DNA of 64,000 bases from Escherichia phage vB_EcoM_G2133, in sequence record MK327928.1, one strand, 5' to 3'. Within the stretch, counting starts at the first letter, position 1; each line of letters opens with the position of its first letter. Shown piece by piece: positions 41,248-44,628 of the stretch. Below the pieces are notes generated by a model, which saw only the letters and a program-made list of their open reading frames with translations, was not told the origin of the DNA and did no database searches. The translations under genes and the position numbers were made by a program.

Positions 41248-41972
41248 TATAGTACCTTTAGTGTATTTTTAATTTTAGAAAAAAGTTCTTCAAGAGAACC
41301 ATCGTTTGTAATTACTAAATCGCCATCACGAATTGGCAATCCAGCTTCTGTAATATGTGTATCATTGGATTTTTGACCAGGACGAACTACATGAATTACT
41401 GTAGCACCCATCGCCCTAGCCGCATCCATTTCATGATCTTGACGGGTATCAGGAACGATATAATAATCATAACCTGAGTTAAATTTATCAAGATAATCTA
41501 AAGCAAATAATTTTACCCAGTACATGCGGTCGAAGTTATTAACAATCAAATCCGTACCTAGGGCTTGCATCAGACGACGGACTGACCATTGATCTTCAAT
41601 ATTATTTATAACGTCAGTAATTTTGTTAAATGCTACGAAATTAACTGATTCTTTTCCTTCGTCGTCAAAAACAAACACGCCTTTAATCGGGCTTTTACTA
41701 TTAAGATAGCAAAATGCTTGTTCCATAATCATAATTACTTCTAATTTAGTCAAATTCAAATTAGTCTCACGATCATAGTCAATTCCTTCAAACTCTTTAC
41801 GAGTTAAGCAAGGATAATCATTGTTTGCAGCAAATACACCCCATGCATAAGCCAATGCATCCTTAATAGGACCAGCAAGTTGATATTTAACTGCAGAATA
41901 ATTATTCATGATAAAATCTGCAGTAGTATCTTTTCCACTACGCTTTACACCACTTAAAAAGATTAGTTTCAT
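41247..41972 (-). CDS. 1: dNMP kinase gp1
   Basis: 241 aa; P-loop GVKRSGKDT; matches T4 gp1. Confidence 0.9.
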
Positions 41973-42021
41973 GTGTTTCTCCTCAAATTTAGTTAAGATT
42001 ATAACACATGAAACTGAAGCA

Positions 42022-42552
42022 TTAAACTTCTGCTATAATTTTGCCATCTTTTTCTACTTGAAAATACGTATAAGGAATCGTTGCTGTGCATACTAAAGCC
42101 GGGTCTGAATCTTCCGTGTAGCTAAATTCTACTTCAGACAGGTCAGAAACCCAGGGCTTATAAAAATTTATTGACATCACGATTTCAGTTTTACTATTAT
42201 CTAAAATGTAAAGCGTAATGTATTCAGGACCTGTTTTTTGGGCAGTATTTTCGCCTGTAAGATAGTTACTAGTTCCTAACATCCATTCATACATTCCTAT
42301 CCACGACTTAAGTTCTTCATCAACTATAAATCTCACAATGAGTGGATCATACTCAAATGTAACACCTGGACGTTGTGCTCGACCCAGGCCAAATGGCCCA
42401 GTCACGGTATCAGTAACAGGTATCCTAATTCCTGGAATAGGAACTGACTGAGCATTTAAAGTAAAAGCAGATGTAGTATTACTATGCGGTATTGATACTA
42501 CAAAGTTAGTTGTATTTGCTTGGTTAAAAATTTGTTGCAGTGCTTGCGACAT
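42022..42552 (-). CDS. 3: Tail completion and sheath stabiliser gp3
   Basis: 176 aa from the ATG at 42552 (track ORF is N-terminally extended); size and position match T4 gp3. Confidence 0.8.
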   Translation of the reverse strand: MSQALQQIFNQANTTNFVVSIPHSNTTSAFTLNAQSVPIPGIRIPVTDTVTGPFGLGRAQRPGVTFEYDPLIVRFIVDEELKSWIGMYEWMLGTSNYLTGENTAQKTGPEYITLYILDNSKTEIVMSINFYKPWVSDLSEVEFSYTEDSDPALVCTATIPYTYFQVEKDGKIIAEV

Positions 42553-42658
42553 ATATTCCTCATAATGCTTTATAAATGTTGGTGGTATAATGGGTCTAAG
42601 TCCCTTCCATTCAATTCCAATTAGAACAAACAACAGAAAAGAATGGAAGATAATAGAA

Positions 42659-43318
42659 TTAATTTATTAGACTTCTTAAACGAACAGAAGTCATAAATGG
42701 AAATTTTTCTAAAGTTGGCTTTCGCCAATATCTTGGATGACAAGTTGATTTAAAATCAAGAACAATTTTCTTTGCTTCATCAATAGTGTTAACTCCAAAG
42801 TTATCTAACATTATTTTCTTTTCTTTTTCCCACCGTTTATTAGCTAAAGCAGATTGAAGCTTTTTGTTTTTAAATGTGTCATTTTTTCTAGAATGAGTTG
42901 TTCCTTGTGTCGGACTCCATCCTCTTCCTAAAATAAATCCCTCAGGAATTATATCTCCATCATGCAATTTTATACATCTTTTACCATTATTATAATATTT
43001 TCGTCCAGTTTGTGTATTTGAAATATTATTTGCATGTTTTCTTTTTAACCAACCATAAACTTTATTATTTCTCCTAACATATTTAGTTGAAACCGTCATT
43101 TTTATGGCTGCATAAGATAATTTTAAAGAATTTGGGTGTATTTTTACTAATAGCTGATGTGCAACATAATGCTCTTCTGGAGTTAAATCAACCAAGTTAG
43201 AAGCATCATTACTACCGCCTAAACATTTCGGAATAATATGATGTCTTTCTTTATATCCAGTAAGGGCTCTATTGCGAGCCCTATCAATTAGTGAATTATA
43301 AATTTTTTCATAATTCAT
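42659..43318 (-). CDS. HNH homing endonuclease (Mob family) inserted between genes 2 and 3
   Basis: Start at the ATG at 43318, overlapping the gp2 stop (ATGA); motif [32 protein letters not shown]. Confidence 0.65.
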
Positions 43319-44142
43319 CGTACATTGCTCCAAACTTTGTTTGCAGAGAAACGTTTTCCTTTTGAGTAGAAGCTTTGGAGTGGCATCAACACAACGTTCG
43401 CCCAGTCTTTCGGGGCGATTTCAACAAGGCTACCCATAATATTACCAGGTATATATGCCTTAATCATTTGGTCTGCACCCCTAAATCCTTTCACTTGACT
43501 CCAATCAATTTTTAATTTCGTTTTATTAGTAATAGTAGGTGTATTTGCATATTGCTTTAAAAGCTCTTCTAGAAACTGTTGACGAGCTTTAGGTGGAATA
43601 TAGTGCAAGTTCAATCCGTACATTAAATTATGCTTACCTAAACCAAGGTAAATTATCAAAGGAAATTTATCCCAGTAAGGAAGAGTTTCCTTGTGTTTAG
43701 CATCATAAGCAAAAGCATATATTCGTCCCGGCTGCGGGCGAACAACTTTATGTCCTTTTACTTGCTTAATAGTTTCAGCAAACCACTTTCTGGTTTTATT
43801 ATTAATTGCTGCGCCTTCATTACGAATTTTATCGCGCAATGTTTGTCTGAATGAATTTATCATAAGCAGTTGTCTTTCTTGCTTATTGAGCTTATTCATT
43901 GGTTTTGATTCAAGCTTTTGAATCTTTTCAGCCGTTTTAATTCCTGAAGCATATTTTGACATTGCTGAAGTAAACGTAGAGTATTTGATTCCTCTTTCTT
44001 CGGCAAATTGCTTTCCTGTCATTCCTTTTGCTTTGGCCTTTTTATATTCAAGACCTATCTGAATCCATTTCTTTTCGTTTAATGATTGCTTAACCTTTGG
44101 AACTTGGGGAGTGCTTTCATTAATTATTTGAAAAATAGCCAT
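43315..44142 (-). CDS. 2: DNA end-protector protein gp2
   Basis: 275-codon ORF; size and position match T4 gp2. Confidence 0.85.
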
Positions 44143-44594
44143 TATGCCCCCTTAAAGCCAAGAGCTCGTAATCCATCTTCTGTTAGAATTCTAAATTTTA
44201 TTCCACGCTTTTCAGCTAAAGCTTGCGCTGCTTTCCATTTGTCGGTATTAACGGAATATGTATAAATTTCATTCATAAATCTTTTCTTCGCTGCAGTTGT
44301 TAGATGTGCTGGTTTAACTGGTGGTTGTGTTTCTTTTTTAGGTTTTATTTCAATAAAAAATTCTTGTCCAGAAGAATCTTTCATCCAAATATCCATGAAG
44401 TATCTACGTTTTTTCCCTTCGGCATTACAAAAATAAGGAATTACTGCTGTTTCACTACCCCATGCAATAATTTCTGGATTTTTATCTAACCATTCAAAAA
44501 AGAATTTTTCCCAATTTGATCTATACGTAATTTTTTTAGGGTCACCTCTATATTTTGATATATTTTTAGGAACCCATTTTCCAGAATATGCCAT
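44142..44594 (-). CDS. 4: Head completion protein gp4
   Basis: 150 aa; size and position match T4 gp4. Confidence 0.85.
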
Positions 44595-44605
44595 TGGATT
44601 CTCCT

Positions 44606-44613
44606 TATAAATA
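44606..44613 (+). promoter_or_regulatory. T4 late promoter (TATAAATA) for gene 53
   Basis: Exact TATAAATA about 29 nt upstream of the 53 ATG. Confidence 0.5.
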
Positions 44614-44620
44614 GATAATA

Positions 44621-44628
44621 TATTTATA
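44621..44628 (-). promoter_or_regulatory. T4 late promoter (TATAAATA on the minus strand) for genes 4-2-3
   Basis: Plus-strand tatttata; AAGGAG and the gene 4 ATG lie downstream. Confidence 0.45.

Follow-up and report, generated by a model that had tools for sequence, protein, structure and literature searches.

The DNA analyzed here is a stretch of 64,000 nucleotides (referred to as the window) from Escherichia phage vB_EcoM_G2133 (MK327928.1), a T4-like phage of the genus Tequatrovirus; its best match among phage records showed 96% identity over 92% of a 24-kb stretch, and its gp2 is 98.9% identical to T4 gp2. On the minus strand of the window, genes are arranged in the order 4 (44594..44142), 2, an HNH open reading frame (ORF), 3 (42552..42022), 1, 57A and 57B. 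Gene 2, which encodes the DNA end protector (275 aa), extends from 44142 to 43315 with a TGA stop codon at 43317..43315, and the HNH ORF (43318..42659; 660 nt, 219 aa) starts with an ATG at 43318 and ends with a TAA at 42661..42659; the start of the ORF and the stop of gene 2 share the bases ATGA at 43318..43315. A 106-nt spacer (42553..42658, minus strand), which is essentially identical in phages with and without the ORF, precedes gene 3; in T4 (AF158101), a 106-nt spacer alone separates genes 2 and 3. The original prediction had placed an HNH endonuclease gene between genes 2 and 3, with its ATG at 43318 overlapping the gp2 stop codon as ATGA; both the coordinates and the overlap proved correct, and the gene assignment was confirmed by the match of the ORF to PHROG 655 and by its conserved HNH motif. 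A TTG at 43333, given as the start in a program-made ORF list, was rejected as M1-N2-Y3 is invariant across the family, and all annotated records of the ORF begin at the ATG.

The product of the ORF matched PHROG 655 ("homing endonuclease") with E = 9.5e-59 and contains the motif E24-x-H26-H27...N41...H50...H54, in which H26, H27, N41, H50 and H54 are invariant or nearly so among 48 homologues. The codons of the HNH motif are located at 43169..43243 on the minus strand (H26 and H27 at 43243..43238, N41 at 43198..43196, H50 at 43171..43169); the codon for H54 (43159..43157, minus strand), conserved among the same 48 homologues, lies beyond this block. When the family profile was used, the HNH block aligned with the McrA HNH motif (E = 0.0024) and also with the Cas8-HNH motif. 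The window protein scored under the Pfam gathering cut-offs for both PF01844 (16.5 bits; cut-off 21.4) and PF14279 (17.8 bits; cut-off 27.5), but PF01844 was matched by 32 of the 48 family members at E < 0.01, and some family members contain the NUMOD3 / I-HmuI-type Pfam domains PF07460 and PF22083. An AF2 model of the protein (mean pLDDT 89.9) shows strands at residues 24-27 and 42-45 followed by a helix at residues 47-60, in agreement with the beta-beta-alpha core on which HNH enzymes carry the His-His pair, the structural Asn and the metal-binding His. Fold searches with the whole AF2 model returned no significant match, and no significant match in sequence or fold was found between the protein and solved homing endonucleases. 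By its sequence motif and family membership, the product belongs to the HNH (His-Me finger) endonucleases.

The protein consists of an N-terminal nuclease domain (approx. residues 1-95) and a C-terminal domain (approx. residues 96-219), which differ in their distribution. The first approx. 95 residues are common to many phage HNH genes at other loci (40-70% identity), including those for MobB and MobE, which are approx. 45% identical to the window protein over residues 1-114, while the C-terminal approx. 120 residues are confined to genes positioned after gene 2. A modular build of this type, in which a shared nuclease head is combined with a DNA-binding tail specific to the site, is usual for homing endonucleases. 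The ORF is a free-standing mob-like HNH homing endonuclease gene, the cleavage activity of its product being predicted.

This gene is already known, as its annotation in phage RB32 and relatives of that phage dates back to 2006. The window gene is 99.5-99.8% identical at the nucleotide level to RB32ORF146c and to 36 other records, with copies in RB33, HY03, vB_EcoM_112 and fPS-2 among others, which are labeled as "putative site-specific intron-like DNA endonuclease" or "homing endonuclease". The RB32ORF146c record itself, annotated in 2006, reads "similar to mobB; not conserved from T4 position", and the census by Petrov et al. lists two mob-like genes in RB32 (Table 5 in PMC2993671). Our literature searches found no paper characterizing the gene or any of its orthologues. 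RB32ORF146c and its copies occupy the same site as the window gene and share with it the ATGA overlap and the recoded end of gene 2 described below; they differ from the window copy by one private substitution in the latter (A212V).

The C-terminal domain was found in 77 phage records, as a single copy in each, representing phages of Escherichia, Shigella, Salmonella, Citrobacter, Serratia, Erwinia, Kosakonia, Klebsiella, Enterobacter, Providencia and Acinetobacter, among other hosts. For comparison between genera, we used 11 lineages, i.e., the window, six named phages (NM4.3, Moonvirus; P479, Gaprivervirus; SP1, Muldoonvirus; QL01, Dhakavirus; Cronus, Roskildevirus; and Konradin, Lazarusvirus, subfamily Twarogvirinae) and four metagenomic contigs. 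In all 11 lineages, which span two subfamilies, the gene is located directly 3' of gene 2. In one metagenomic contig, gene 4 rather than gene 3 lies downstream of the orthologue, which indicates that the association is with the end of gene 2. Among relatives of SP1, two with an empty site (L013 and L017) again place the insertion at the gene 2 stop codon. Sequence conservation at the junction between genera was observed on the gene 2 side only; any recognition site that the orthologues have in common must therefore be located in the stretch encoding ...PLQQFVSKGKR...VW. Between genera, dN/dS was 0.1-0.3 in both domains, with synonymous sites saturated, which indicates purifying selection.

Within Tequatrovirus, the distribution of the gene was assessed among 512 phage records matching the region from gene 1 to gene 4. 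The full gene was present in 36 of these records and a remnant in one (Shigella phage CT01), giving 37 carriers in all; the remaining records (approx. 470), including T4, T2 and T6, show a precise empty site and are 659 bp shorter. The view that T4 has genes 2 and 3 adjacent, with no endonuclease between them, thus holds, and a comparison of the 2-3 region across T-even phages extends it to T2 and T6. In carriers, the TAA of the endonuclease gene (42661..42659) occupies the position of the TAA of gene 2 in T4, and the sequence to the right of the insertion showed no substitution linked to it in the alignments. The gene is hence a 659-bp presence/absence polymorphism among near-identical phages, with a precise empty site, as judged from genome comparison. 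A scan of IMG/VR with gp2 yielded no more than three close relatives, all of them lacking the insertion, and the population analysis was accordingly based on GenBank phage records.

To describe the population pattern, we aligned 22 Tequatrovirus sequences, of which eight came from carriers (the window and seven others), one was the CT01 remnant and 13 had an empty site. In genes 4, 2, 3 and 1, polymorphisms were mosaic and showed no linkage to the insertion, except in the last approx. 70 nt of gene 2. HEMP5 is an empty-site relative that is nearly isogenic with the window phage in genes 3 and 1. Among the eight carriers, nucleotide diversity was 0.5% in the endonuclease gene as compared to 1.4-3.2% in genes 4, 2, 3 and 1, a difference that fits recent spread of the cassette into different genetic backgrounds. 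Decayed copies were also observed; the CT01 copy has lost the HNH motif through a 486-bp in-frame deletion between ATTGAT repeats, the FL23 copy is frameshifted by a 1-nt deletion in an A run, and FL44 shows a 659-nt match and a split annotation like FL23. Such decayed copies are part of the usual life cycle of homing elements.

These patterns bear on two alternatives to a mobile cassette. According to the first, the gene would encode a domesticated nuclease that benefits the phage, e.g., through attacks on host DNA or on competing phages, or through joint action with gp2 and gp4, the neighboring head-completion proteins, and would be retained by selection rather than by homing. The presence of orthologues with intact frames and similar length at the same site in two subfamilies, the dN/dS of 0.1-0.3 and an orthologue divergence that roughly follows that of the flanking genes are consistent with this explanation, as long-term conservation at one site could mean a benefit to the phage. 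However, only about 7% of Tequatrovirus records carry the gene, viable phages contain deleted or frameshifted copies, and a diversity 3-6 times lower than that of the flanks argues for horizontal spread and not for vertical retention; overall, domestication appears improbable. The second alternative, i.e., that the window copy is an inactive relic hitch-hiking in the late operon, could draw on the private A212V substitution in this copy and on the many T4 mob genes that were never shown to be active (Table 1 in PMC2988022), but the frame is full-length, all conserved motif residues are present, and the low diversity of the gene across diverse backgrounds suggests recent mobility. We consider this second alternative to be as improbable as the first.

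The end of gene 2 differs between phages with and without the insertion. In carriers, the gene ends with GTT TGG AGC AAT GTA CGA TGA, as compared to GTC TGG TCA AAT ATC TAA in T4, and the C-terminus of gp2 accordingly reads ...SNVR instead of ...SNI. This recoded 3' end (43315..43335, minus strand) is found in carriers only and holds both the ATGA (43318..43315) and a GGAG (43331..43328), the latter arising from a change of the Ser codon TCA to AGC and located 9 nt before the ATG. An 82-nt query ending 1 nt before the ATG was matched to its end by all 37 insertion or remnant records, while for the HEG-less records among the 60 matches listed, the match ended at position 71 of 82.

A second difference further upstream in gene 2 is a 15-nt block, designated cluster 1 (43366..43380, minus strand), which reads CTCCAAAGCTTCTAC (encoding LQSFY) in carriers and CTTCAGCAGTTCGTT (encoding LQQFV) in most HEG-less phages. 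The LQSFY block was present in 37 of 37 insertion or remnant records as compared to approx. 15 of the approx. 470 empty-site records; the latter (EC128, SG1, vB_SsoM_113, SP21535, GRNsp7 and others) have the T4-type gene end. The LQQFV block was found in no Tequatrovirus carrier. Serratia phage SP1, a carrier, differs from the HEG-less L013 and L017 at the same two codons of cluster 1 (QSFQ in SP1 as compared to QQFV in L013 and L017), although its Ser is encoded by TCC and not by AGC. On the other hand, the carrier lineages P479, L077, L081 and QL01 retain QQF. Cluster 1 was thus rejected as a universal immunity change, since the pattern holds in Tequatrovirus and SP1 but fails in these four lineages, and the role of LQSFY as an immunity change is uncertain for the same reason. 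Cluster 1 may nonetheless be a candidate recognition or cleavage site, or an immunity allele.

Upstream of gene 4, an exact match to the T4 late promoter consensus, TATAAATA, is located at 44621..44628 on the minus strand, 27 nt before the gene 4 start, and represents the presumed promoter of the 4-2-HEG-3 unit. Within 44800-41900, the minus strand contains no other exact match to the late consensus; a divergent match at 44606..44613 serves gene 53. A scan from gene 4 to gene 3 detected no terminator-like site. Upstream of the HNH ORF, we found neither an exact late consensus nor a convincing MotA-box promoter, and sigma-70-like matches were fewer than in shuffled sequences; a promoter of its own for the endonuclease gene was thus rejected. 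The cassette accordingly has no such promoter and lies inside the 4-2-3 unit, and expression of gene 3 requires that the cassette be transcribed. Late co-transcription of the endonuclease gene as part of the 4-2-3 message, as put forward in the original prediction, is therefore a well-supported reading of these signals. What normally protects a genome with a homing endonuclease gene is the disruption or alteration of its target site, and not the timing of expression. The suggestion that late timing serves to avoid cleavage of the phage's own genome is thus imprecise, while late expression is indeed typical of T4 homing endonucleases (PMC2988022).

With regard to translation, the start/stop overlap was found to be kept in 10 of the 11 orthologous lineages, the arrangement being a 4-nt overlap in six lineages, a 1-nt overlap in four and a 1-nt spacer in one. 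Conservation of the overlap across saturated divergence is the best evidence obtained here for translational coupling of the endonuclease to gene 2, which is likewise well supported by these comparisons. The GGAG 9 nt before the ATG could also allow initiation that does not depend on gene 2, and one could propose that the endonuclease is translated from its own ribosome-binding site, with the ATGA as a by-product of compact insertion. The GGAG at 43331..43328 and the GGAG or GGAA-type sequences also present in P479, SP1, Konradin and QL01 are in line with this proposal. Yet L077, L081 and L078 have no recognizable Shine-Dalgarno sequence and nevertheless start at or beside the stop codon, and 10 of the 11 lineages keep the overlap although synonymous divergence is saturated; we thus regard independent translation as rather unlikely, and coupling to gene 2 as the preferred reading.

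We also considered whether the ribosome-binding site could be masked by an anti-Shine-Dalgarno structure, in which CUCCAAA in cluster 1 pairs with UUUGGAG. In the window, the GGAG was predicted to be paired with cluster 1 (P unpaired of about 0.01). However, 8-12% of shuffled upstream sequences masked the GGAG equally well, and the GGAG was still 87% paired when the T4 allele was swapped in; as these controls lent no support to a specific structure, masking is kept here as a weak possibility. Similar anti-Shine-Dalgarno-like pairings can be drawn for NM4.3 and SP1, with the result for SP1 varying with the folded length.

A GC-rich hairpin (AGGGCUC-GCAAUA-GAGCCCU; 43263..43282, minus strand; predicted -13.5 kcal/mol) spans codons 13-19 of the HNH ORF. 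Each of the 10 further orthologues that were examined has a hairpin of 6-9 bp at these codons, with different stem sequences (GGGCCC, GCGCUC, GUGCUC, CUCGGGC, UCACGUG or CCGGGC), and also in RB6 mobE, where the stem is 9 bp and the loop 4 nt. It was absent from five paralogues at other loci and from L080, a distant gene-2-linked homologue. Column-wise covariation of the stems was modest, as several of them are shifted in register. The window hairpin conforms to the mobE type in being a stable GC hairpin about 30-37 nt after the AUG. In mobE, the hairpin is followed by a short U tract and was shown by Wilson and Edgell (2009) to act as a weak intrinsic terminator (PMC2790892), whereas the window stem has no U tract after it (the sequence that follows is UUACUGGAUAU) and a consensus scan found no terminator there, which makes a terminator role in the window phage doubtful.

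Overall, the locus probably holds a selfish mob-like HNH homing cassette that lacks its own promoter and sits precisely at the stop codon of gene 2. Transcription of the cassette would be late, starting at the late promoter that precedes gene 4 and yielding the 4-2-3 message. Translation would depend mainly on ribosomes that terminate at the UGA of gene 2 and reinitiate at the overlapping AUG, aided in the window phage by the GGAG provided by the recoded gene 2 codons. Termination and reinitiation would keep the endonuclease scarce and late, and the mobE-like intragenic GC hairpin may lower expression further. As the gene lies inside an essential late operon, its insertion must leave the expression of gene 3 undisturbed. 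In a mixed infection, the enzyme would nick or cut the gene 2 / gene 3 junction of a HEG-less phage, most likely within the conserved 3' end of gene 2, and recombinational repair would then transfer the cassette to the recipient, along with about 70 nt of adjacent gene 2 sequence. The process would amount to intronless homing. It would be accompanied by local marker exclusion, which enzymes of this type bring about in phage crosses; such enzymes are also candidate sequence-specific nickases.

More tentatively, in the mob-like endonuclease family that targets gene 2, an obligatory start-stop coupling to a late structural gene and the hairpin shared with mobE could represent a conserved module for the control of expression, with the LQQFV/LQSFY block as a recognition site for which a resistance allele circulates; we regard this combined proposal as possible but somewhat doubtful. 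If it is true, natural isolates would provide a ready-made system for homing, immunity and loss within an essential late operon. The value of the locus as such is mainly confirmatory, as it adds one more copy of an annotated mob-like endonuclease gene, but it is also a convenient model, since near-isogenic T4-like phages include natural carriers, phages with empty sites, phages with a putatively resistant empty-site allele and phages with decayed copies.

Several known systems resemble the window gene in part. I-HmuI, an HNH nicking endonuclease of the Bacillus phage SPO1, likewise combines an HNH domain at its N-terminus with an extended DNA-binding region behind it; it is encoded within an intron, whereas the window gene is not. 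The T4 endonucleases SegF and SegG are alike in the lifestyle proposed here, as they are free-standing between conserved genes, cut the HEG-less allele and co-convert its flanks (PMC2993671, PMC2988022), but they are GIY-YIG enzymes with mapped cleavage sites, whereas the window enzyme belongs to the HNH type and its target is predicted. T4 MobB shares the mob-like HNH N-terminal domain (45% identity over residues 1-114); its gene, however, is located between alpha-gt and alpha-gt.2 with an upstream promoter of its own (PMC2988022), and its C-terminal region is unrelated to that of the window protein.

The lack of an own promoter and a start that overlaps the upstream gene are features of mobE and of several other T4 endonuclease genes (PMC2988022; PMC2790892). 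Like the window gene, mobE, which lies between nrdA and nrdB, is free-standing. The N-terminal HNH domains of MobE and the window protein are approx. 45% identical, and both genes lack a promoter, start in overlap with the upstream stop codon (PMC2988022) and contain a GC hairpin at the same ORF codons; mobE is co-transcribed with the upstream gene, as the window gene presumably is. The two differ in the C-terminal domain, in the insertion site and presumably in the target, and while mobE is present on early, middle and late nrdA transcripts (PMC2790892), the window gene lies in a late structural operon. The mobE-like arrangement of the window gene, i.e., the lack of a promoter, the overlapping start and the hairpin, suggests that self-limiting expression may be common to such selfish genes.

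Two copies of the endonuclease gene, a free-standing mob-like HNH homing endonuclease ORF, were found in a decayed state. In Shigella phage CT01, the gene survives as a remnant (L003:2501-2674), from which 486 bp have been lost in-frame between two ATTGAT repeats; the remaining ORF has 57 codons and the HNH motif is gone, while the recoded end of gene 2 has been retained despite the deletion. In Escherichia phage FL23 (L082:301-959), one nucleotide is missing from an A run at approx. nucleotides 176-180 of the endonuclease gene, which as a result is annotated as two ORFs and is probably a pseudogene. Although this deletion was confirmed in FL23 only, the gene of FL44 appears to be in the same state, as judged from a 659-nt match and a split annotation.

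The carrier-type LQSFY block of gene 2 was also observed, joined to a T4-type gene 2 end, in approx. 15 phages without the endonuclease gene, including EC128, SG1, vB_SsoM_113, SP21535 and GRNsp7 (L062-L066; equivalent of window 43380..43366), and the T4-type block was found in no carrier. These empty-site phages may harbour resistant alleles, may have arisen through endonuclease loss, or may retain the ancestral allele. With regard to base composition, the endonuclease gene (window 42659..43318) has a G+C content of 29.5%, which is lower than that of gene 2 (35.7%), gene 3 (37.1%) and the window as a whole (34.7%). Gene 1 shows a 12-nt in-frame indel polymorphism among Tequatrovirus records (window approx. 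41648..41659; gene lengths of 714 vs. 726 nt), which showed no linkage to the endonuclease gene in these records.

The head-completion cluster is a hotspot at which endonuclease genes concentrate. Paralogous HNH genes are located upstream of gene 4 in three comparison sequences (L007:2001-2669, L014:1337-1663 and L015:1346-1672) and between genes 4 and 2 in a fourth (L021:1611-1940). Separately, the matches to gene 4 in L007 and L014 are split over two frames, as if frameshifted. In P479 (L005:533-1180) and Konradin (L083:1-359), a second gene annotated as a homing endonuclease is located immediately upstream of gene 2. A metagenomic contig (L080:92-2221) shows the order gene 2, endonuclease, gene 4; its endonuclease is a homologue with 46% identity that still adjoins the gene 2 end, which it overlaps by 4 nt.

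Among the potential secondary structures, an AU-rich 11-bp hairpin, GAAUUAUGAAA-AAAU-UUUAUAAUUC, was predicted on the minus strand (window 43293..43316), in the Tequatrovirus copy only; its first base is the G of the endonuclease AUG, and it could be an obstacle to independent initiation. The spacer before gene 3 contains an inverted repeat, CTTCCATTC ... GAATGGAAG (window 42604..42649, minus strand), with a stem of 9-10 bp and a loop of approx. 28 nt; this repeat is also present in T4, and its predicted stability was ordinary as compared to shuffled sequences (z = -1.0). Members of the Serratia phage SP1 group have a terminator-like element 3' of gene 2, in which a T run follows a strong hairpin, CTGGGAGC-GTA-GCTCCCAG ... 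TTTTT (L006:2661-2700 in SP1, with equivalents in its empty-site relatives L013 and L017); the insertion of the endonuclease gene separates this element from the stop codon of gene 2.

Exact matches to the late-promoter consensus TATAAATA were found for gene 4 (window 44628..44621, minus strand) and for gene 53 (window 44606..44613, plus strand), placing the two consensus sequences back-to-back at window 44606..44628. Directly upstream of gene 1, TAATGCTTCA is followed by TATAAT (window approx. 42024..41990, minus strand), an arrangement whose sequence resembles that of a MotA-dependent middle promoter, which would serve this dNMP kinase gene.
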